A model generated the notes under the pieces. It searched no databases. It saw only the letters and a program-made list of their open reading frames with translations, and had not been told where the DNA came from. Below are positions 2,772 to 52,460 of a DNA stretch of 64,000 nucleotides, one piece after another. The stretch lies in contig OZ024747.1 of NCBI GenBank assembly GCA_964016885.1, positions 64,232,001 through 64,296,000 on the forward strand, read 5' to 3'. The translations under genes and the position numbers were made by a program. The number at the start of each line of letters is the position of its first letter. Position 1 is the first letter of the stretch. This stretch comes from Eledone cirrhosa. Its lineage: Eukaryota.

Positions 2772-3104
2772 AAGGCGGGTCAAATTCCCGAGATCCATGG
2801 ACGAGTTCTCTCCAGCGGTCTCTGTCCCTCATTATCGCTGCCATGTCCTGCGTCTCCAACAGACCAGTGTCTGTCCTTAGGGCATCAACATACGTTAACC
2901 TTGGTCTTCCTCTTCTAGTGTGTCCATGTAGTGGAGTCTGTGCTGATGTATGGGTCTGAGACTTGGACACTGACCAAGAAACTCACTCAAATGGTGGATG
3001 GGTGCTACACGAGAATGTTGAGGATGGCTCTGAACATTAATCAGTATACACTGAGGATGAAAAACTCAGAGGTGTATGGGAGCATCCCAAAAGTCAGCTC
3101 AAAA

Positions 3105-3106
<2 letters not shown>
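2770..3106. mobile_element. RTE-type LINE 3' fragment with internal inversion
   Basis: 2770-2920 (-) encodes RRGRPRLTYVDALRTDTGL...RDRDRWRELV; 2925-3106 (+) encodes ESVLMYGSETWTLTKKLTQMVDGCYTRMLRMALNI. Both are typical post-RT RTE/RTE-X segments, in opposite orientation, with (TA)n on both sides. Confidence 0.8.
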
Positions 3107-3138
<32 letters not shown>

Positions 3139-3149
3139 TATGTATATAT

Positions 3150-3530
3150 ATGCTGAGAGAAAGGAGTACTCAATACCGAAGTAGAATTTTAACATTCATT
3201 TTATTAAGGCTAAATAGTGAGTCTTGTTTCTTTGGAGTTTCGCAGGGTCATCAGACTAGATGTAACATTTCCATATCAGATAGTGTATAAATAAAAACTC
3301 GATATAGGGGAGGGGGGATTTCAAACAGCCCTATCCTCTCCCATTGCCACTAACACCCTGTCTACCATATCTTAATTACTCTTCCACAATTAAATCCTCC
3401 CCTCCCATCTCGTGTTTTCCTTTATTTATACTGTCTGCTATCGAAACGCTAGTTGCTGTCTGCCGTCACTGTGATAAACAGACAAAACTCCAGAGTAACA
3501 GGACTCAGTATTTTGCCGTAATTAAATGAA
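3150..3530. mobile_element. Fold-back PLE mini-insertion (family B), decayed hammerheads in both arms
   Basis: 3195-3295 is the reverse complement of 3420-3530. Minus strand CTGATGA-ccctg-c-GAAAC-tccaaa. The tail matches 27320-27370. Confidence 0.75.
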
Positions 3531-6857: not shown

Positions 6858-7037
6858 ATAAAGAGGGTCTGGTAAGATACCAGATGGACCATAACGCACC
6901 AGAGTAGAGTACTCAATACTTACGGTGGTAGAGTGGGTCATAGGAAAAGAGTCAGGACCCCGACGGCAGAGCTCTGGCCGTTTCGACAGCTAAATCCGAA
7001 ACGGCCGGAGCTCAGCTGTCGGGGTCTTAACTATTTT

Positions 7038-7040
<3 letters not shown>
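6858..7040 (-). mobile_element. Fold-back PLE mini-insertion, family A
   Basis: Hairpin gacggcagagctctggccgtttcg / cgaaacggccggagctcagctgtc (hammerhead GAAAC...GTC half) plus ~95 bp tail with GAGTACTC; (TA)n both sides. Confidence 0.8.
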
Positions 7041-7100
<60 letters not shown>

Positions 7101-7673: not shown

Positions 7674-7736
<63 letters not shown>

Positions 7737-7739
<3 letters not shown>

Positions 7740-7920
7740 AAAAAGTTTAACCCCGACGGCAGAGCTCAAGCTGTTTCGACGGTAATTTCAGAAATAGCCG
7801 TCGAAACTGCTTGAGCTCTGCCGTCGGTTAAACCTTTTCCGATTACCCACTCTACTACCCTAAGTATTGAGTACTCTGGTGCGTTATGGTCCATCTGGTT
7901 CCTTACCACAATTCCTTCGT

Positions 7921-7952: not shown

Positions 7953-8037
7953 CACACACAATACATAATATATATGCAAATAATAAATCTACACACGCAC
8001 CTAGCGCCACTCAGATATATGTATAGAATTATATATT

Positions 8038-8216
8038 TGGCAGTATTGGTAGAGGGTCGGACGCCATCTTTCGAGCATTAGTTACATCCCTTTACGGTCT
8101 GAGTTCAAATCCTGCCGAGGTTAACTTTGTCTTTCATCCTTACGGGGTCGATAAAATAAAGTACCAGTAATACACTGTGTAATTGCTGGCCTTGTGCCAA
8201 AAGTAGAAACAATTAT
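8038..8216 (+). mobile_element. tRNA-derived SINE (Meta-domain-like core)
   Basis: B box GAGTTCAAATCC, core gccgaggttaactttg(c/t)ctttcatccttacggggtcgataaaataaagtaccagt, tail gctggccttgtgccaaaagtagaaacaattat. Many copies in the window. Confidence 0.85.
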
Positions 8217-8489
8217 ATATCTACATAAACATATATATAATACATAATGGATATATTATAGAAATAATAATTCTGCATTCACATGTAGGTATGTGTGAAT
8301 GAGTGTATGGCAGTGTATGCAAGTGTGTGTGTGTTTGAGTGTGTGTGTGTGTATGATTGTGTGTGTGTGTGTGTTTCCATGACTGTTTGCGTGTGTATTG
8401 ATCACAAATGAATGTAAATGTACATGTATAATGAGCTTGTTGACATAGGTGCACGTAGAAGAATATCATATATTCGTGGAAATACATAG

Positions 8490-10527: not shown

Positions 10528-10921
10528 AGCGGAGATTCGGTAGAGGGTTGGACGCCATGCTTTCCAGCATAGTTACGTCCCTTTACAGTCTGAGTTCAAA
10601 TCCCGTCGAGGTTAACTTTGCCTCTCATCCTTACGGGGTCGATAAAATAAAGTACCAGTAATGTACTGGGTAATTGCTGGCCTTGTGCCTAAAGTAGAAA
10701 CAATTATTTAGACATTTAGACAAGGGGGGGGGGGGGGGGGGGGGCAGTATCGATAGTGCATCAGACGCCATGCTTTGCAGCATAGAGTGATGACTATATA
10801 CGGTCTGCGTTCCCGCCGAGGTTAGCTTTGCCTTTCATCCTTACGGTGTCGATAAAATAAAGCAGCAGTAATATACTGAGGGTAATTGCTGGCCTTGTGC
10901 CAAATGTAAAAACAATTATTT
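10528..10921 (+). mobile_element. Two tandem SINE copies separated by a poly-G run
   Basis: SINE core and tail at 10528-10708 and 10742-10921. Confidence 0.85.
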
Positions 10922-11383: not shown

Positions 11384-11433
<50 letters not shown>

Positions 11434-11438
<5 letters not shown>

Positions 11439-11704
11439 ATAATAATAAAATTGAAGACTAAAATCCAAAGAGGGCTCGATAAGGAAAATATATATCAAAT
11501 ATATAAGAACCGTAGAGCAAATATATATATATATATAGTAATAATAATACATTTGAAGACTAAAATCCAAAGAGGGCTCGATAAGGATAAATATATATCA
11601 AATATATAAGAACCGTAGAGCAAATATTTATTAAAATTAGTTAGTTTCAGAACATCCCGTTAAGGGTGAGAGCAGCGATACTTTGCTTAAACTTTAATCT
11701 GTTA

Positions 11705-11740
<36 letters not shown>

Positions 11741-11820
11741 TTTTTATATATCTGATATATATTTATCCTTATCAAGCCCTCTTTGGATTTTAGTCTTCAA
11801 ATTTATTATTATTACTATAT

Positions 11821-11895
<75 letters not shown>

Positions 11896-12084
11896 GATTT
11901 TTATATATCTGATATATATTTATCCTTATCGAGCCCTCTTTGGATTTTAGTCTTCAAATTTATTATTATTACTATATATATATATATATTAAACATTTGC
12001 TCTACGGTTCTTATATATCTGATATATATTTATCCTTATCGAGCCCTCTTTGGATTTTAGTCTTCAAATTTATTATTATTACTA
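11434..12084. mobile_element. Head-to-head cluster of five family C PLE tail copies in (TA)n
   Basis: Unit cttatcgagccctctttggattttagtcttcaaatttattattattac occurs twice on - (11434, 11536) and three times on + (~11740, ~11897, ~11990). Decayed hammerhead at 11643-11693. Confidence 0.8.
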
Positions 12085-12528
12085 TATATATATATATATA
12101 CCTCATACATAATCCTATGTATTATTATAATAAATATAAATGTCATGATATTAATTTTAGTCGGGTAAATCGAATATGAATGTGTCTCCAGTTTATAGAA
12201 ATTTATAAGCTATTCTATTCTCCATTTTGTTTATATTAAGTGCATTGTTGAAATTGTTTACATCCACTCAGTGCTTTGAATAAATATTTGTACATTCATT
12301 ATAATCAAAAGCCAAAAAAAAAAACAAGATTATAATGCCTTACATAAAATTATCTATTCATATGTTTTGTATTCGTTTCATTCGTTTGGATTATTTCATA
12401 ATATAGTCTCATATATGTATTCATATATATACACATACATATATACTAGATATATATATTTACACATACATACATACTATATATACATACATACTTACAT
12501 ACAAGATATATATCCAAATACATACATA

Positions 12529-13469: not shown

Positions 13470-13524
13470 CATACATAATATATATACATACACAATACAT
13501 ATATGAACATATATACATAATACA

Positions 13525-13614
13525 ACAACCACGTCTCGAGCTACCTGCCTGAGAAACAATTGTAACACTCAATAAATTAAGTCCAGATGCATCACTGATT
13601 TTTCGTTTTCTTTA
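13525..13614 (+). mobile_element. Family E PLE tail fragment (hammerhead 3' half)
   Basis: gaGAAAC-aatt-GTA-acactcaataaattaagtccagatgcatcactgatt resembles 24243-24305. Confidence 0.6.
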
Positions 13615-13699
13615 TAATATATATATATATATAGATTTGACTGCTATTTCTAGCAGTTCAAGTTTATACATATATATATATATATATATATAAATATAT

Positions 13700-13838
13700 A
13701 TTTATTAAAATAACAGATTAAAGTTTAAGCAAAGAATCGCTGTTAATAAATATTTGCTCTACGGTTCTTATATATTTGATATATATTTTCCTTATCGAGC
13801 CCTCTTTGGATTTTAGTCTTCAATTTTATTATTATTAC

Positions 13839-13840
<2 letters not shown>
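13700..13840 (+). mobile_element. Family C PLE mini-insertion with inverted 5' part
   Basis: Inverted hammerhead 3' piece joined to the tail with GAGCCCTC (13797-13804); (TA)n both sides. Confidence 0.75.
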
Positions 13841-13914
<74 letters not shown>

Positions 13915-14135
13915 TGAACTGCTAGAAATAGCAGTCAAATCTCAGCAAAATAATTCAATGCAATTTTATATAAAGTAGGATACATTAAAGTTGGATAAAA
14001 GACACCGTATCACGTATTCTCGATCGGGGATGAAAATAACATTTTTGTTCAGCTTTCTAAATTTATTAGTAATATTATAAAATGGTTTCTTTCTTACTTA
14101 TATTCATAATTTCATTTCTCATTGTAAATTTATAT

Positions 14136-14324
14136 AATTGTTTCTACTTTAGGCACAAGGCCAGCACATTACCCAGTGTATTACTGGTACTTTATCTTAT
14201 CGACCCCGTAAGGATGAAAGGCAAAGTCAACCTCGGCGGGATTTGAAGTCAGATCGTAAAGGGACGTAACTATGCTGGAAAGCATGGCGTCCGACCCTCT
14301 ACCGATACTGCCAATCCACCGCCT
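14136..14324 (-). mobile_element. tRNA-derived SINE
   Basis: Reverse complement of the SINE core and tail. Confidence 0.85.
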
Positions 14325-14721
14325 ATTGTAAATTTATATAATAGTATTAAATATTATACTCATTTTTCAACAATGCCAGGCTTAAACATTAAATCTATAA
14401 CAATTACAAACGATTATATATTACTATGCTCTTTTAAATCCAATATTCCTTACACAAAACTTCACAGAAACAGATACACAAACATTCACACACACACACA
14501 TACATACGTGTGTGTGTGTGTGTTGCATCATCTTAATTTTACGAGTCAAAATCACTATACTGTAAATGTGGAAATTTTACAATATAGAAAATTCTAATGC
14601 TTACAATGTTTGGTAAACAAACGACTTATCTTTTTACTACCCCACTGTCTATCTCTATCTCTCTTTCTCTCACTCTCTCTCTCTCACACTCTCTCCCTCT
14701 ACATACATTAATATATATATA

Positions 14722-14898
14722 TAACGGAGGAAATGTGGTAAGGAACCAGGTGGACCATAACGCACTAAAATACTCAATACTTAGGGTAGTAGAGTGGGTA
14801 ATAGGAACGAGTAGGAACCCGACGGCTGAGCTCAAGCCGTTTCGACGGCTAATTCTCGTCGAAACGGCTTGAACTCAGCCGTCGGGGTCCTACTCGTT

Positions 14899-14901
<3 letters not shown>
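14722..14901 (-). mobile_element. Fold-back PLE mini-insertion, family A
   Basis: gacggctgagctcaagccgtttcgacg / cgtcgaaacggcttgaactcagccgtc hairpin plus tail; (TA)n flanks. Confidence 0.85.
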
Positions 14902-14963
<62 letters not shown>

Positions 14964-16829: not shown

Positions 16830-17276
16830 GAAACTATATTTATATAACCATATTTATTTTATTATATATATATTTCAAGGGTACAAAGACACATTGGTAC
16901 GCTTTCATCAGATAAAATATAAACTTTGTTTTATAAATAGAGAGATACCCAAGAAAATCATACCTTATAGGTTCATTATTTAGCAACCAGTTATAATTTA
17001 AAGTACTCAACATTAAAGGATCTATTTATAAGTAGAAGGGGTATTTGATTTGTTAGAAGTCCAACACATATAAATGTTTATAACTGATTTAGAGCACTCA
17101 ACAGTTTACTAGAGTAAATATTCAATGGTATTAAATAAATGGAAACTATATTTATAAAACCCTATTTATGTTATTATATATATTTTAAGGGTACCAAGAC
17201 ACATTGGTACGCTTTCATCAGATAAAATATAAAGTTTGTTTTATAAATACCCATGAAAATCATACCTTATCGGTTA

Positions 17277-20937: not shown

Positions 20938-21368
20938 ATGAGAGACGTAAAATAAGAAAATTAAAAAATTAACTTACTTACTTAAATTTCACTCCCAACT
21001 AATTAGTTTCTGAAAGGGATTAAACGTACTATCCGAAGAGAGCACAGAGAAGCCTTTCGTCATCAGGGAAGTCTATTCTCAGCTAAGTTTCCAGGCAATA
21101 CGTGGACACAGGGAACTTATACAAAAATAATTCAGTGGATGGAAAAAGCAAAGCGAGGACTAATTCCAAGCCATTGATAAAATCACTGCCTACTGTGTCG
21201 GTGGCAAATTCAAAAGAATCAATCACGTGACATCGAGGTTAATCAGTGGATAGTGGTTTGTTCGTAAGACAGCAGCCGTATTGTTACTATAGCAGCAGTT
21301 TTGGCCATTTTTGCTCGACAAATAATTTTGGAGATAATTATAAAGAATTAGTATATCTAGTAACATTA
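20938..21368 (-). mobile_element. PLE 3' region (family H) with hammerhead
   Basis: Hammerhead at 20991-21072. Tail gagtgaaattt(t/a)agtaagtaagttaattttt...ttttacgtct(t/c)tcata recurs at 51717-51775; (TA)n flanks. Confidence 0.7.
20991..21072 (-). ncRNA. Type I hammerhead ribozyme, extended stem II
   Basis: acttcc-CTGATGA-cgaaagg...cctttca-GAAAC-taatta-GTT-gggagt; palindromic stem III ACTAATTAGT. Confidence 0.85.
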
Positions 21369-21520
21369 TATATATATATATATATATATATAAAGAATGA
21401 ATAATAAAACAGGTAGACATCATATAAAGGTAATTTATTCCGAGTGCTTTAAAATGTTTCAACAGTAGTTACACAGCCTAGTCATGTTATGTGCAAATTG
21501 GTAGTTATTTATTTGCAGAT

Positions 21521-22794
21521 ATTCAATTAAATAACCAAAATCTTGAAAGGCTACGTAAAAACATTAAGACATTTTTTAGTGAACTGGGTCTAAAAATAAC
21601 ATACGAATGCAATCATAAAGTAGTAACGTTTCTAGACGTAACTCTTAATTTGAATACAGGACTGATACGACCATTCCACAAGATAAATGAGACCTTACCT
21701 ATATTAATTTTAACTCGAATCCCCCACTTTCCATGATCAAATCGGTTCCTCGTAGTATTTCTCTCATAATCTCTCGCCCATCGTCTAACTCTGAGATTTT
21801 CAGTGAACATGCTGAATACTATAATAACGCATTAAGGAATGCAGACCACCGGGATAAAATAGAATACATTGATAAGAATCTCCATAGCAAACATAGCTAC
21901 ATACGAAATCAAGGAATATATAACCGGGGTACAGAAATACAAGCCCACACACGCAGTACCACCAGACATACTAATAATAGAAAATCATCACCAAACTCAA
22001 CTAAATACGTTGTAGAAAGTATACCTGGTATAATCCCATTGTTAATGCTTCGATTAGTACAAAACTATCTCTTTCATTCTTTAAGTTAATTAACAAGCAT
22101 TTCCCTAATTCCCATAAATACAGTAACATTCTAAACTCTAAGACTGTTAAGCTATCATACTCCACTGCACCAAACCTTGAAGCATACATAAAAAAAACTT
22201 AACTTAAAGCAATTATTAAACAACACTACAAAACAAAATATTTTAGAAACAGATGGACATAACGTAATATCAGCCTCCCAACCACCAAATGGGAGACGGG
22301 TATTACACAACCCACCTGAACTGTTATCCCAACCTATCCATGGTACACCTGCTATCCACAACAAAAACTGCAACTGCCACCTACCCGAAATATGCCCATT
22401 GAAGAATAAATGCCTAGAGTCCAACATTGTTTATGAATGTACTGTCGAATCGAACGACCAGAAATGGTATTGCATCGGGTCTACCACTAGCTCCTTTAAA
22501 TATCGCTGGTATCGTCATCGATTTTCGATTAAACATCCTGAACACCGTCTTGAAACCACGCTCGCCAATGATACCTGGCAACTCCGTGAATGCAACCGGC
22601 AGTTCACTTTGAAATGGGATAAATTATGCAGCGCTAGTGCATATCGGAGTGGATTGAAGCACTGCAGATTATGCAACCTTGAACTCTTTTATATCTTGAA
22701 ATCCCAAAACAACATACTAAATGACAGAATCGAAGGATCGTTATACTGCAACCACAAACTGAAGGCTAAATTTTCTCACTATAAAATAACTTAA
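21521..22794 (+). pseudogene. Frameshifted PLE RT C-terminus plus GIY-YIG endonuclease
   Basis: VTFLDVTLNL...RPFHK, YYNNALRNA, KTVKLSYS, then CNC..CPLKNKCLESNIVYEC...YCIGST..FKYRWYRH...CRLCNLE...LNDRIE..CNH (Naiad-type Cys pattern). Confidence 0.9.
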
Positions 22795-23378
22795 CATTCG
22801 AACTTGAGACTAGAGCACCACTTTCTCGCTAACTAATTTCACTCAATAACTACTTCCTAACTATACCCCCCCCCCATCCCCCATACACACACTGCAAGCC
22901 AGTACCATGCTTATCATTATAAATTGATACTTGAGTGCGATCAGCAGACTACAACTATGAACTCGATGTATACCGCCTTTCCTTCCCCTTCTCGTAGCTT
23001 TTCTCTGTCCCCCTCTTTCTCTCTCTCTTTCTTTCTCTCTCTTCCTTCCTCTCTCTCTAGTCTTCTGTCTACCCCCCTCCCTCTCCACATCTATCAACCT
23101 GCTCTCTGTGGCAATAAATAATTCCAAACTTGACAATACAAACACAATGCCTCAGTTGTCACATTGAGAGTAAGTAGTATAATAAAACCACTTGTTGGAC
23201 CCCCATCACAACATTTAGTTTAAGCTATCTGTATTCTTCAAACCACTCTCTCCCATTTATCCGACCTCTACATCTCTCTCTCTCTCCCTCTCCCCTTCTT
23301 TCTCTCTTCATTTTTCTACTCTATCTTCCCCAATAACGTCCTTTAAGAAATACAAGCGAATTTACACTTTAACCATTC

Positions 23379-23498
23379 TGCTCTGAAGACACGGTAGGAG
23401 AAGCAGCATTTGACAATTCAATATCTGCAAATAAATAACTACCAATTTGCACATAGCATGATTAGGCTGTGTCACTACTGTTGAAACATTTGTAAGCA
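23379..23498 (+). ncRNA. Type I hammerhead ribozyme in PLE pLTR, ~90 nt stem II region
   Basis: tgct-CTGAAGA-cacggtag...ctactgtt-GAAAC-attt-GTA-agca. Stem I extends (attct/ggaat) across a 3-nt bulge. Confidence 0.85.
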
Positions 23499-23843
23499 CT
23501 CGGAATAAATTACCTTTTTATGATGTCTACCTGTTTTATTATTCATTCTTTATATACACTCCGGAATATAGAAGAATCAGAAACTGAGTTTCTTTAACTA
23601 TTCTTCCATAACTCGTTGAGTAACTCCTCACCGTACGCCGACTCTATCTAGTGTAGTAACTAACCATTACTGCATTCAGGATAATCCTAAGCATTTCTTG
23701 CATTATATATATATATATATATAATTGGTGTTGGATGCTTAAAGCGTCCGTTAGCGGTAGGCCGTTTGAGCACTCGCTGATCTTCACCTCAGTCTGAGTG
23801 AAGTTGTACGGAAAAGGAAAAACAACCGTACAACTTCAGTCAG

Positions 23844-23886
23844 ACCGAGCTGAAGATCCGTATAAGGTGAAACAATTGTTCTCGGT
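23844..23886 (+). ncRNA. Minimal type I hammerhead ribozyme (family D)
   Basis: accgag-CTGAAGA-tccgtataaggt-GAAAC-aatt-GTT-ctcggt; palindromic stem III ACAATTGT. Mirror copy at 24418-24460 (-). Confidence 0.9.
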
Positions 23887-24168
23887 ATGGTGAAGTAACT
23901 ATTGTGGAACTACTTCTACCAAACTCGTTCCATGGACAGAGTTCTCTACTACTACGGATATAACCCTCCAGTGTTCTACTATTATATATATATATATTAG
24001 AAAAAAAGAGAATCAGTGTTGCGACGAATGGAATTTATTGCACATATTGCAATCGTTTCTTTGGCGACCAGCTCGAGGCACGATCGATGTGATGATCGAA
24101 CCTGACTCTGAAAATCGCAAGGTCCTCAGATACGCTTTGATTCTACGAAGCAGATTTTCCTAATGAGA

Positions 24169-24260
24169 CGTATCTGAGGACCTTGCGATTTTCAGAGACA
24201 GATTCGATCATCACATCGATCGTGCCTCGAACTGGTCGCCAAAGAAACGATTGCAATATG
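24169..24260 (+). ncRNA. Type I hammerhead (family E) with non-canonical GCA triplet
   Basis: cgtat-CTGAGGA-ccttgcga...tcgccaaa-GAAAC-gatt-GCA-atatg. The same variant is in the mirror arm; the relative at ~13553 has GTA. Confidence 0.7.
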
Positions 24261-24588
24261 TCCAATAAATTCAATTCGTCGCAACACTGATTCTCCTTTT
24301 TTTCTGATATATATATATATAATAGTAGAACACTGGAGGGTTATATCCGTAGTAGTAGAGAACTCTGTCCATGGAACGAGTTTGGTAGAAGTAGTTCCAC
24401 AATAGTTACTTCACCATACCGAGAACAATTATTTCACCTTATACGGATCTTCAGCTCGGTCTGACTGAAGTTGTACGGTTGTGCTTTCCTTTTCTGTACA
24501 ACTTCACTCAGACTGAGGTGAAGATCAGTATATGGTGAAACATTTGTTCTCGATATGGTGAACTAACTGTTGTGGAACTACTGATATA

Positions 24589-24663
<75 letters not shown>

Positions 24664-24667
<4 letters not shown>

Positions 24668-24871
24668 CGAAACATAAGTCAATTGCATGAACTCATAATC
24701 CTTTATTTACTGCTATATATATTTCGTTGATAGCTATTGAATGGCTTCATGCAATTATGAGTTCATGCAATTGACTTATGTTTCGTCACTATTATAACTC
24801 CGGAACTTATAACTTCGATGAGTGCTCCCTATCCGCATACTGAAGTACTGGATGTTACCAACACTTTCTTA

Positions 24872-24875
<4 letters not shown>
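24664..24875 (+). mobile_element. Fold-back PLE mini-insertion (family I)
   Basis: gtgacgaaacataagtcaattgcatgaactcataat inverted at 24753-24790; hammerhead 3' half on -; tail GAGTGCTC at 24820-24827. Confidence 0.7.
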
Positions 24876-24928
<53 letters not shown>

Positions 24929-24931
<3 letters not shown>

Positions 24932-25100
24932 GAGGGATTCAGTTTGAAAATGATTGGGGTAGTAGAGAATTATTATATAAAGTATCGAGACCCAACGGCT
25001 GAGCTCTTGTCGTCCGTTTCAACAGCTAGTTGCAGACAGTCTGCAACTAGCTGTTGAAACGGTAAGAGCTCAACCCGTCGGATCCTGATAATTCATAATA
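24929..25100 (-). mobile_element. Fold-back PLE mini-insertion, subfamily A2
   Basis: gtttcaacagctagttgcagac / gtctgcaactagctgttgaaac hairpin; related to 11165-11375. Confidence 0.75.
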
Positions 25101-25420: not shown

Positions 25421-25463
<43 letters not shown>

Positions 25464-25467
<4 letters not shown>

Positions 25468-25555
25468 TGTTTCTACTTTTGGCACAAGGCCAGCAATTAA
25501 CCAGTGCATTACTGGTACTTTATTCTATCGACCCCGGAAGGATGAAAGGCAAAGT

Positions 25556-25556
<1 letters not shown>
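25464..25556 (-). mobile_element. SINE 3' fragment within (TAA)n
   Basis: SINE tail and core in reverse. Confidence 0.8.
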
Positions 25557-25604
<48 letters not shown>

Positions 25605-28462: not shown

Positions 28463-28823
28463 TATATTATTCAAAATGTTAATAAATGAAAAATATTCTC
28501 ATAATCAAAATATATATTTTATTATACATATTTCAAAGGTACAATGGTGTTTAAGTACGGTTTCATCAGACAAAATATATGATTTGATAGGTGACATACC
28601 GCTACGGTTTTGATTATTCAATTCCAGTATTGGCAGTACTGGAATTGAATAATCAAAACCGTAGTGGTATGTCACATATCACATCATATATTTTGTCTGA
28701 TGAAAACGTACTTAAATCAAATCATATATTTTGTCTGATGAAACGTACCTTTGAAATATGTATAATAAAATATATATTTTGATTATGATAATATTTTTCA
28801 TTTATTAATATTTTGAATAATAT
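28463..28823. mobile_element. ~360 bp fold-back (family F-like) with hammerheads in both arms
   Basis: Centre attccagtat-tggc-agtactggaat. Minus-strand hammerhead at 28514-28578: atattttgt-CTGATGA-aaccgtac..gtaccttt-GAAA-tatgt-ATA-ataaaatat. Confidence 0.85.
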
Positions 28824-29067: not shown

Positions 29068-29312
29068 CGTTAACTATAAAAAATATGTGTTAGAAAGATA
29101 ATCAAATCCAAACAACCGTAGGGATGCTTATATTGATTCCATATTCTATTTACATCCATATGTAACTTAAAATTAGAAAAAGTTTACAATTCTGTCTGGT
29201 TTTTCTAATTGGTATTCTAAATAGCTTATAGTCACAAAAGCATATGTTGTTAATATTTGAATGTTCGGAAGTTTAACAAAACATAGTTATTTCGATATCA
29301 ATACATGATAAT

Positions 29313-29450
29313 AATTGTTTCTACTTTAGGCACAAAGCCAGCAATTACCCAGTGCATTACTGGTACTTTATTTTATCGACCCTGTAAGGATGAAAGGCAA
29401 AGTCAACCTCGGCGGGATTTGAACTCAGATCATAAAGGGACGTAACTATG
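29313..29450 (-). mobile_element. tRNA-derived SINE (truncated)
   Basis: SINE core and tail in reverse. Confidence 0.85.
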
Positions 29451-30789
29451 ATAATAATAATGATTAAATTAGTCTGGAAAATATTGGAATACTAATTTGG
29501 TATTTATTGGTATTCCATTAGAGGTATTACTCTATGCTGTTCCTTTAGTTATATACATTTCATTTTCCTTTCTTCTGTGTATATACTATGTAGTTTTACT
29601 TTCCGTGTGTTTACAGGAAGGGGAAATATCACTGGCATTTCTAAACTCCAGAGACCTCAGGTATCCATGCCATTTTCATAACATATTTTGAATGAAAGAC
29701 TGCCTAATATTGTCAATTAATTTGGAAAATATTCAAGAATGTTGACAACGTTAGTAATATTACTTTCGCTTTTATTTTTAAGTTGGTTTTTGGAGCTTAA
29801 AGAAGCGATGACTCTTACATAAAACTATTGTGAAAAATTTACATTTGAATATAAACAGGTGGTTTTATATTATATAGCCATACAGATGAGGATGTGGTTT
29901 TGATGGTTTCCTATTAAAAGAGATATTGCTCCTTTTAAACTCTTGGATTTTCATTACTTCTGAAACGACATGGAAGGTGTTTGAAAAGGCAGTGGTTCCG
30001 GGCGGAATGATTAATACGGGTTCTGTGGTTCGGACTTTAGCACAATATGAATTGATGAGAGGAGAGGAGATAATGAAGACGGTAGTACCGTAATAGAGGT
30101 AGCATATGACCAACAATTTCTGTAAAGAAGAGACCATTTTAGAAGCGGTAAAAGTGTTTGTCTTAAGTTAGCGAACTACAGAGGGGATACTGTTTAGTTA
30201 AATCAATTTGTTAACTGCCAATGCTACGCTTAATTTAAATTTATCTATAGGAATTGAGCGTGTTATTCTCTGTACTATCAGGAACTCACACTTCTTCAGC
30301 TACGGTGTTTACTGATATAATTAATACTGAATCAATGGATAATATTACTAAATATGATTTATATTCAAAGCATATTATTATATCTCAGAAATAGATATTC
30401 AAATATCGTTACTATATCTTAGAAATAAATGTAGTTTCTATTGATTTCAGCACTGCAGAATGAAAAATCTAAATGTAATTTATTTTACACACATTAAGCA
30501 GATAATAATTATAGATATGCACTTTTTCATAGATATAGTATTGTGCTGGGCTGGTTGTGTAATTTTATATATAAAGTATATGATTAACGAAGATATCATT
30601 TTCATCTGTGTTATATACATACAGGCAGAGAAGCGGTCTAAAATGTACTGATATTTGTTAAAATCCATTAATCTTGAAGAAATTGAAGAGTATTAGAATG
30701 CCCGAATCGACATACCTAATGCATTAGTGTTTTTAGCGTTGAGCAAACTACATTGATATCCTAACCGTGTTGGCTTGATCTATCATTCC

Positions 30790-33133: not shown

Positions 33134-33237
33134 ACCCCTTGAAAAGTTCAGCTATTTATAACCACGCTAAAAATTCTGATTTAGGCCAGAAATAGTCTTC
33201 GAAACGGCTTGAGCTCTGCCGTCTGGGTCTTGACCAT

Positions 33238-33241
<4 letters not shown>
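33134..33241 (+). ncRNA. Unfolded (non-mirrored) family A hammerhead, degenerate core
   Basis: acccc-TTGAAAA-gttcagctattt...agaaatagtcttc-GAAAC-ggcttgagctctgcc-GTC-tgggt. Shows what lies upstream of the family A half-motif. Confidence 0.6.
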
Positions 33242-42200: not shown

Positions 42201-42331
42201 CTTTTATCTGGAGTTGCAACCGTCAGACAGTATTAGCAATTGGAAAGACCAAAAGAAACGTCGTTTCCTCGGTCCGATTTGACGAAAGTTGATCGACTGT
42301 CGATATATATATGTATATATATATATATATA

Positions 42332-42536
42332 TAGGAACCAGTAAGACCCCGACGGCTGAGCTCAAGCCGTTTCGACGCCTAATTCTGGACTAAAAAAATC
42401 CAGAATTAGCCGTCGAAACGGCTTGAGCTCAGCCGTCGGGGGTCTTACTGGTTCCTATTACCCACTCTACTACCCTAAGTATTGAGTACTTTGGTGCGTT
42501 ATGGTCCACCTGATTCCTTACCATATTTCCTTCGTT
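42332..42536 (+). mobile_element. Fold-back PLE mini-insertion, family A
   Basis: Hairpin with ~57 bp arms around ctaaaaaaa, plus the family A tail; (TA)n flanks. Confidence 0.85.
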
Positions 42537-43044
42537 ATATATATATATTACACGTATGCATTTATTGTGAAATTGTTATGGCAGACTGGATTCTGTATCT
42601 AACGATAACCGGATTTTCTTTACTACTTGAACAGGGATTGATGTCATTGAAATCAACTTTATGTAACACCACATTCACGTTAACTTTTGATACAATAACT
42701 GCATATTATAGAGTATGAACAACCGCTTAATAGGCTCACATTAAGTAATACACGCTTCAGGTCTGGCTTATAGGTACCTTTTACTTGTATTGTTTCTATA
42801 ATTTCTACAACTGCATCGGATCCGTTCTAAACATATTATTCCTAGTGGCGGCGCTGCAATTAAGGTCAACTAAGCAGATACGCATGGCACACCACAGACA
42901 AGCAATTTATTGAATCTTAAAGGAACACGATTGCACACATGTCAACTCACCCCGTCCGATGGGGAGATTTCCCACCCACTTTGGAGTGGGTGAAAGATGT
43001 CTTCTCGTATGAAAATGGGTATAGTTTTCATTATGTAAAACGGA

Positions 43045-47649: not shown

Positions 47650-47686
<37 letters not shown>

Positions 47687-47687
<1 letters not shown>

Positions 47688-47808
47688 GTAATAATAATAA
47701 ATTTGAAGACAAAATCCAAAGAGGGCTCGATAAGGATTAGTTTCAGAAGATCCCGTTAAGGGTGAAAGCAGCGATTGTTTGCTTAAACTTTAATCTGTTA
47801 TTTTAATA
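47687..47808. mobile_element. Family C mini-insertion with hammerhead variant at 47739-47789 (+)
   Basis: agttt-CAGAAGA-tcccgttaagggt-GAAA-gca..tg-CTT-aaact, joined in inverted orientation to the GAGCCCTC tail. Confidence 0.75.
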
Positions 47809-47809
47809 A

Positions 47810-47844
<35 letters not shown>

Positions 47845-47893
47845 TATATAAACATACACATATATATATTATATATATACACACATATATATT

Positions 47894-51386: not shown

Positions 51387-51520
51387 ATGAGGATCCGCTA
51401 AGGGTAAACAATTGTTCTCGGTATGGTGAACTAACTGTTGTGTAACCACTTCTACCCAACTCGTCCCATGGACTGAGTGCTCTACCACTACGGATATTAC
51501 CTTCCACTGTTCTACCACTA
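51387..51520 (+). mobile_element. Family D PLE tail copy
   Basis: aaacaattgttctcggtatggtgaa...gagtgctctaccactacggatat matches 23870-23982. Confidence 0.8.
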
Positions 51521-52460
51521 TATTTATATATATATACATGAGCGTGTGTGTGTGTTTATGTATGTGAGTGGATATATATATAAAGAATTAGTATATCTAC
51601 CAACATATATATACATATGCATACCTATGCTAGCAAATATATAGGTTTTGTCTTAGTAACTCTGTGGTTCAATGCAAGGGGATGCAGAACAATTATATGA
51701 AAGACGTAAAGTAGTGGAGTGAAATTTTAGTAAGTAAGTTAATTTTTATAATTTTCTTATTTTACGTCTTTCATATATATATATAGTTTTGAAATAATCC
51801 CTTTTCTTTAAATCCATCAACTAATGACCTCCACCCATCTCAATCACCAACCTCTCCTACCACCAGAAAATGTATAAATACCACCATATTACACTGGCAG
51901 TCGGCTTTCGTGATGATTTCACCCGAATGAAAACACACACACCAACACTCCCAACAATTTCATTTAGGGAAAACAGTGGTGACTCGCTCGGCATCTCACT
52001 ATACGTCTGAGATATAAACAAAATAATAGTATATTGCGCTTGTACACACAAGCAAACACATAAGCAAAAACCTAGACTGCATATCACTATTTAGATGTAG
52101 AGGATATAGAACGTATATGAGTGTGTGTGTATATATATTCTTTTAGGTTTAATGGTTCAGCACTGGTTAGAACTGGTCATTCTGTATAGTTAACCATGAT
52201 TTAATAGTAGGAAAAGCACTCAGCGTTACACAGCTCATCCATCGTTGATGTTGAATCTTGTGGGTGGTGCGGGAACGAAGTTAAATATTAGTTTGGTGGT
52301 CCAGCCTCTTGTTATTTTCTAATCAAACTAAATATTTTAATTAAACTTATAAATATAAATTATATATGTATAAGTAAAATGATTAAATGGAGAAGTTGCA
52401 GTTCGTTTAAAACAAAATTTTACTTCTTACATGATCTTTCACCTTTGTTATTACTATATC

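Follow-up and report, generated by a model that had tools for sequence, protein, structure and literature searches.

How does one repetitive element come to stand between two inverted copies of its neighbour? The question is raised by a palindrome of about 750 bp in the window, the whole 64-kb stretch of DNA that was analysed, which is AT-rich and eukaryote-like and in which microsatellites are abundant. Each arm of the palindrome holds part of one element (D), seven TA repeats and part of a second element (E). A first-pass annotation proposed that fold-back synthesis during the insertion of E ran past the end of the element and copied the flanking DNA, an inverted transduction.

Structures of a related kind are known from Penelope-like elements (PLEs). 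Head-to-head palindromes, self-priming and the capture of host DNA between the terminal repeats (pLTRs) have been described (PMC3846280), and the helix III of the terminal-repeat hammerhead is short and palindromic (PMC4209133). Experiments in vitro show that a PLE protein cleaves both strands of AT-rich DNA and that it starts at two internal sites; insertion does not depend on hammerhead cleavage (PMC11167929). In the available portions of this literature, the completion of PLE insertion and the origin of complex inverted structures are named as an open question (PMC8557442), with steps that await validation (PMC11167929).

Inverted copies also arise when broken ends are repaired. In yeast, a break near natural inverted repeats leads to fold-back inverted duplications accompanied by flap trimming (PMC10622511, PMC7467729). 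Ends made by the L1 endonuclease give rise to local inversions and inverted duplications (PMC11702581).

Here we report an analysis of the palindrome and of the repeats around it. The explanation that we favour, and to which we give about half of our belief, is that a head-to-head pair of E arms was later extended by an inverted copy of (TA)7 and 206 nt of D through fold-back repair. The palindrome is most likely a repair scar without a function of its own.

Materials and methods

Of six public sequencing runs listed in a search for the locus, three shared any words with it, the best 0.21 of them; the locus is in none. With four of the six mapped at 85% likeness, we found no read or contig piece that spans the locus and no empty allele. 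These four runs come from related organisms that have X, F, D and E (see below) in high copy, and they served for the family comparison. The two deep contig sets among them derive from a single sample in which the alleles of the window are missing (at 23357, for instance, another base takes up all or nearly all of the depth); they bear on the repeat families, not on this locus. What we call the family consensus is accordingly a rough one, drawn from the reads of another organism, the relative, and not from the source genome. From these reads we examined 40 of 298 differences, 15 of 105 joints and 22 of 886 loose ends.

Results

Comparison of the window with itself by blastn gives an inverted match at 23777-24528 of 755 columns, 94.6% identity and 1156 bits; in 30 shuffles of the 2.5-kb stretch around the palindrome, the top inverted match reached 47 bits. 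The palindrome of D, (TA)n and E arms seen by the first-pass annotation is real, and its arms pair 23778-24135 with 24169-24527. On the top strand, a (TA)n tract (23705-23723) separates the tail of a larger element, X, from F, a 54-nt 3' piece of another high-copy family on the minus strand (23724-23777). F is joined in register to the left D copy (23778-23983, plus strand), which consists of 33 nt of the D short arm, the D loop and the D long arm with its hammerhead motif and tail, and which is likely the new copy. There follow (TA)7 (23984-23997), the left E arm in antisense (23998-24162, of which 23998-24135 is paired), the right E arm in sense (24163-24306), a second (TA)7 (24307-24321) equal in length to the first, the complete and older D fold-back (24322-24582) and a long (TA)n tract (24583-24663). 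In the complete D, a long arm (24322-24476) and a short arm (24496-24582) flank a loop; its mirror image in the left arm stops at 24527.

A motif scan finds the four type I hammerhead motifs and the decayed fifth that had been noted before. Two lie in D (plus strand, 23844-23886; minus strand, 24418-24460) and two in E (plus strand, 24167-24262; minus strand, 24042-24135); the E motifs have a long stem II and, as also noted before, both carry the triplet GCA. The fifth, at about 24513-24556 in the D short arm, reads GTGAAGA instead of CTGAAGA. Rfam at its gathering score returns no match in the whole window and unconstrained minimum-free-energy folding does not recover the hammerhead fold, so we treat these as motif matches: predicted hammerheads, not demonstrated ribozymes.

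What kind of elements are D and E? Their neighbour X (21387-23704, plus strand), which adjoins the palindrome about 1 kb to the left, offers a comparison. Its pLTR identity, reverse transcriptase (RT) motif and Atlas matches mark it as a 5'-truncated canonical PLE. An inverted pLTR (21387-21528) matches the pLTR at 23415-23556 in 135 of 142 positions, and a tail of about 147 nt follows. Coding remnants between them comprise a broken, frameshifted RT end with the motif FLDVTL and an open frame of 200 amino acids (22192-22794) for a GIY-YIG-type endonuclease. The nearest Atlas clusters to the endonuclease (0.95-0.97) are eukaryotic and, where named, GIY-YIG; Pfam gives no family for the two X ORF pieces. 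X also has a long pyrimidine-rich 3' region and a hammerhead-like motif with a stem II of about 100 nt.

D and E resemble the pLTRs of PLEs in their anatomy: a hammerhead motif whose helix III is short and palindromic, arms that stand head to head and, in D, a tail on one arm. The motif is present in both arms of each, both are high-copy, and both end at microsatellites. Neither has a linked ORF at this locus; X, of the same anatomy, retains the RT and GIY-YIG remnants. Between 21350 and 25165, at least six PLE-like pieces (X, F, E, D, 24664-24876 and 24930-25100) are chained through (TA)n tracts, the picture of an insertion hot spot.

The right D was thought to be an older fold-back, and the comparison of its arms bears this out: 24390-24476 and 24496-24582 differ at 10 of 87 positions, and a one-arm extension, or tail, of 68 nt (24322-24389) completes the element. 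The left arm is, as proposed, a truncated and nearly identical mirror of it: including the TA tract, left and right D differ at 4 of 220 positions, and 23874-23997 is identical. Bases that depart from the family consensus are shared by both long arms at mirrored positions, at least five among the differences examined (23895/24409, 23901/24403, 23929/24375, 23938/24366 and 23943/24361), and both short-arm copies share a broken hammerhead core. Since both copies carry mutations that the relative's family copies lack, D had already decayed before it was duplicated. At the first two of these mirrored sites the short arm still has the consensus base, which identifies the long-arm changes as old, private and prior to the duplication. 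These private changes, common to both D copies, make the duplicated DNA a copy of the adjacent genomic flank.

In the relative's contigs, D and E reach summed depths of 10^4-10^5, and loose ends in TA are seen for D. Two 3' ends recur across the D family there (run X4), one followed by TA behind 23918 (689 reads) and one by the tail behind 24582 (545 reads), and they correspond to the short and long arms at this locus. Its reads switch strand at different places (23779-23864, 23803-23841 and 23811-23828). A 24-nt D motif had no match in metagenome contigs or in viral contigs. Miniature inverted-repeat and fold-back DNA transposons have fixed terminal inverted repeats and a structure that is constant across copies. 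We rejected a fixed-structure element of this type, given the variable fold points and two 3' ends of D and the varying fold points of another family in the window, B.

The E arms are arranged head to head. At this locus E has no tail, and no E-family tail was seen among the 22 of 886 loose ends examined from the relative's reads. The apparent loop between the arms (24136-24162) is more antisense E, which extends the left arm: in the relative's reads, a loose-end consensus lies behind 24113 and contig pieces reach 24159 and 24165. At 24254, about 99% of the depth of the relative's E copies has T, giving the canonical GTA; with GCA in both arms here, the E hammerheads are probably dead. The arms also share non-consensus bases at 24061/24242. 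Each has derived bases of its own, the consensus base being kept by the left arm at 24101 and 24105 and by the right arm at 24135-24136, which argues against a simple chimera. Both arms end at the same base, unlike those of the 17 asymmetric fold-backs in a hand-picked set of 19 from the window. In these 17, a microsatellite marks the end of one arm and a tail extends the other (16 found by script, one by eye); the two exceptions in the set are the E pair and a second palindrome, at 2264-2537.

At the outer left junction, the summed depth of F in the relative's contigs is about 18,000 over 23717-23759; no second copy was found in the window at E<1. Its presumed 3' end, putatively that of a PLE, sits at the TA tract. 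F reads have A at 23777, 7-8 letters from their end, and run about eight letters further, into the D hammerhead core. Depth, about 8,300 at 23777, is down to about 590 at 23787. The left end of the palindrome joins F in register at an 8-nt match (23778-23785) within the decayed D hammerhead core. The base at 23777, one position outside the match, is the C of D and not the A of F. With the match read from the relative's reads, the junction would be a microhomology join.

The three pairs of arms have diverged to different degrees: 10 of 87 positions within D (11.5%), 7 of 137 between the E arms and 4 of 220 between the D and TA arms (1.8%). With the relative's consensus as a guide to counting, near-loop changes bring the E arms to 11 of 146, for a range of 5-7.5%. 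Divergence within D exceeds that of the duplication with p=0.0008, and D is clearly older than its duplication by this measure. The E arms compared with D and TA give Fisher p values of 0.11 by sites, 0.049 by events and 0.013-0.016 with the near-loop changes. Differences continue to the last base of E and cease at the TA tract. The E arms thus appear older than the D duplication, on 11-15 differences and with p=0.11 in the plainest count; mutation at the hairpin tip or gene conversion could also produce such a gap. The three values suggest the order D, then E, then the duplication.

The second palindrome lies about 21 kb from the first. It matches itself at 91.4% over 278 columns, is arranged tail to tail and has only (TA)4 at its centre, an example in this window of a flank folded back with no new element in the middle. 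Besides a CA/TA tract, its arms contain a 3' piece of hammerhead-like sequence and a portion of the fold-back next to it (2243-2304). In all, 133 nt of flank is copied, and the right arm ends in TA just beyond the neighbour's hairpin loop; the D copy of the first palindrome likewise stops a short way past a loop. Both inner pieces have the same upstream flank, which makes genomic DNA the likely template. Among self-palindromic matches in the window of at least 85% identity and less than 3 kb, these two palindromes are the ones with unique blocks on both sides of a microsatellite inside the arm.

Discussion

Which history would produce this arrangement? In the explanation that we favour, a single (TA)n hot spot would have received first D and then E, each as a PLE fold-back of the usual asymmetric form. 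Later the tract to the left of E would have been cut, probably by the endonuclease that was inserting F, whose cDNA would have lengthened the left end and stopped after about 60 nt. The right-hand broken end would have been resected and folded back through the inverted repeat of E, and any unpaired E tail trimmed. From there the 3' end would have copied (TA)7, the D long arm, the loop and 33 nt of the short arm, before the new strand joined the F end in register through the 8-nt match in the hammerhead core. With 17 other fold-backs asymmetric, flap trimming would turn an asymmetric E into the symmetric one seen. A single event of this kind would account for the point at which F is truncated, the junction in register, the TA tracts of equal length, the symmetry of the E ends and the greater age of the E arms. 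The anatomy of D, the content that was copied and the junction can be seen in the sequence, whereas the break, the resection, the trimming and the involvement of F are proposed steps.

The core of the first-pass proposal, fold-back synthesis that copies the flank, fits these observations: the D copies share mutations, and the inverted copy crosses the (TA)n tract as synthesis primed from E would have it. A local, already decayed D was copied in inverted form; what we would change is the timing. The word transduction overstates the case, as we see no sign that the flank moved through RNA.

An RNA route would begin with a read-through transcript of E, TA and D, from this locus or another, that was inserted as one composite and folded back through E. 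Reverse transcription could have started from the short 3' end of D, or could have reached D when the template switched away from F RNA within the hammerhead core that both share. The right arm ends exactly at the family-wide short end of D and is followed by TA, and the whole resembles a normal asymmetric fold-back whose arms are 55 nt apart. In the available text of PMC3846280, host DNA between PLE pLTRs is mobilised by them in trans, and self-priming on read-through transcripts with template jumps has been proposed. A donor that already held an E fold-back would also explain the older E arms. Against this, a decayed D would have to be transcribed and recognised, and the same fold-back and joining steps would still be needed. 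Neither of the two other related copies in the window, a D copy at 51388-51533 and an E-related copy at 13523-13610, is a D+E composite; each ends in TA and then unrelated DNA. No D-E joint appears among the 15 of 105 joints examined, a weak test in reads that come from another organism and are cut at TA tracts. We consider an RNA route unlikely.

Could the copying have occurred when E inserted? In a one-step overshoot, the E cDNA snapped back and synthesis continued beyond the end of E into the flank. With the loop as it is, first-strand cDNA would be represented by the left arm and its copy by the right side (E, TA and the whole of D as far as the long TA tract); a later clipping of 55 nt from the left D would be due to F. 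Both E arms stop at the same base, which sets them apart from the 17 asymmetric fold-backs; they share the non-consensus GCA and 24061/24242 bases, and the right arm ends neatly in (TA)n. Snap-back of R2 cDNA before the 5' junction forms is documented (PMC11371274) and self-priming has been proposed for PLE palindromes (PMC3846280), as far as the accessible portions of these papers go. Such an overshoot predicts even divergence along the arms, yet E stands at 5.1-7.5% and D+TA at 1.8%, and the clipping by F must be a separate event. Its first-pass form, with the left arm as the overshoot copy, meets a further difficulty: the loop is E antisense on the top strand, and one-step snap-back gives the reverse polarity unless the loop was flipped later.

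How firmly does the loop speak? In two of three informative family-B copies judged by eye, the loop follows the tail-bearing arm, just as the E loop follows the left arm; in the copy at 42331 it fits the short arm better, and the remaining copies have no informative loop. Because of this two-of-three fit, and because spacers between long arms can flip, we demoted loop orientation from a firm polarity rule to weak evidence. With 7 of 137 differences between the E arms against 4 of 220 in D and TA (p 0.01-0.11), we do not favour copying during the E insertion and rate the one-step overshoot slightly below the RNA route. Other routes, such as template switching in replication or later gene conversion, seem improbable to us.

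Least probable of all is an artefact of the assembly or the library, either a fold-back chimera or a fusion of two haplotypes at the E hairpin. In its favour, no run contains the locus (best share 0.21) and no piece spans it, the 1.8% difference between D arms falls within the allelic range, and such structures trouble assemblers (PMC8557442, in its available part). On the other side, the two arms disagree at no fewer than 11 sites and each retains consensus bases of the relative that the other has lost; the left arm rejoins its flank in register with no onward mirror of the whole right flank, and a second such palindrome lies 21 kb away.

Like the inverted pLTRs of endonuclease-bearing (EN+) PLEs, of which X is a canonical example beside the palindrome, D and E combine a hammerhead in the terminal repeat with head-to-head arms, a one-arm tail and AT-rich or (TA)n targets (PMC3846280, PMC8557442, PMC11167929, PMC4209133). 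They differ in having no ORF at this locus and in the tails, 47-147 nt in this window and 30-40 nt in the descriptions available to us. The palindrome itself crosses the (TA)n target into an older neighbour, whereas those described invert element sequence, with host DNA between the pLTRs. A search that covered titles and the beginnings of abstracts, for the most part outside subscription literature (which includes older work on Drosophila Penelope) and supplements, found no description of PLE palindromes that run on past the target into neighbouring elements.

The fold-back inversions of yeast share with the locus a central inverted repeat, inverted duplication of adjacent DNA, a second junction made by homology and flap trimming (PMC10622511, PMC7467729). 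In the portions of these studies that are available, the yeast events come mostly from cells deficient in Mre11 or Sae2 and involve large rearrangements through dicentrics; here we see a local duplication of 220 nt, closed by an 8-nt match, with the order of the flanks kept. Also related are the snap-back products of R2/PRINT and the target-site inversions and fold-backs of L1, in which a broken end made by an endonuclease primes on itself or nearby before it is joined and leaves inverted copies (PMC11371274, PMC11702581). As far as their accessible text goes, those events took place in cultured human cells with non-LTR proteins. Here the setting is a genome assembly and the elements are PLEs; what served as the priming hairpin appears to be an older element and not the new cDNA.

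A broader reading, which we put forward tentatively and think doubtful, is that insertion cuts among PLEs piled up in (TA)n tracts are often healed by folding on older hairpins, with the ends splinted through the hammerhead core. If so, nested palindromes with duplicated flanks, of which there are two in 64 kb, would be produced routinely in this way, and they would form a natural record of the 5'-junction step of PLE insertion. The locus is one small scar in repeat-rich DNA, a minor natural trace of how such elements may duplicate nearby sequence. Where a palindrome crosses its target into neighbours that can be dated, it preserves the order and polarity of synthesis, and any good assembly allows such palindromes to be counted. 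If common, they would be a source of small inverted duplications, cruciform-prone sites and double-stranded RNA. The main use of the locus is as a pointer to such a genome-wide count, which would bear on how PLE insertions finish.

Other repeats in the window

The copies of family B (6861-7042, 7735-7920, 14700-14903, 42331-42565 and 33180-33241) fold back at different points. The short arm ends at an AT-rich site within the repeat, and one short arm stands alone. An array at 11418-12100, with relatives at 13657-13910 and 47667-47879, is partly tandem and partly inverted, with a unit of about 85-110 nt and (TA)n between units. More hammerhead motifs with intact CTGATGA cores occur at 28464-28823, 16855-16919 and 20991-21072; in the right arm of the first, the core is duplicated internally.

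An open frame at 2919-3290 resembles the end of a LINE reverse transcriptase; Pfam gives only an unrelated match below threshold for it. A SINE-like dispersed family is found at 8037-8222 and in at least 12 other places (among them 10537-10710, 14131-14314, 25453-25557 and 29300-29452), often beside (TAA)n.
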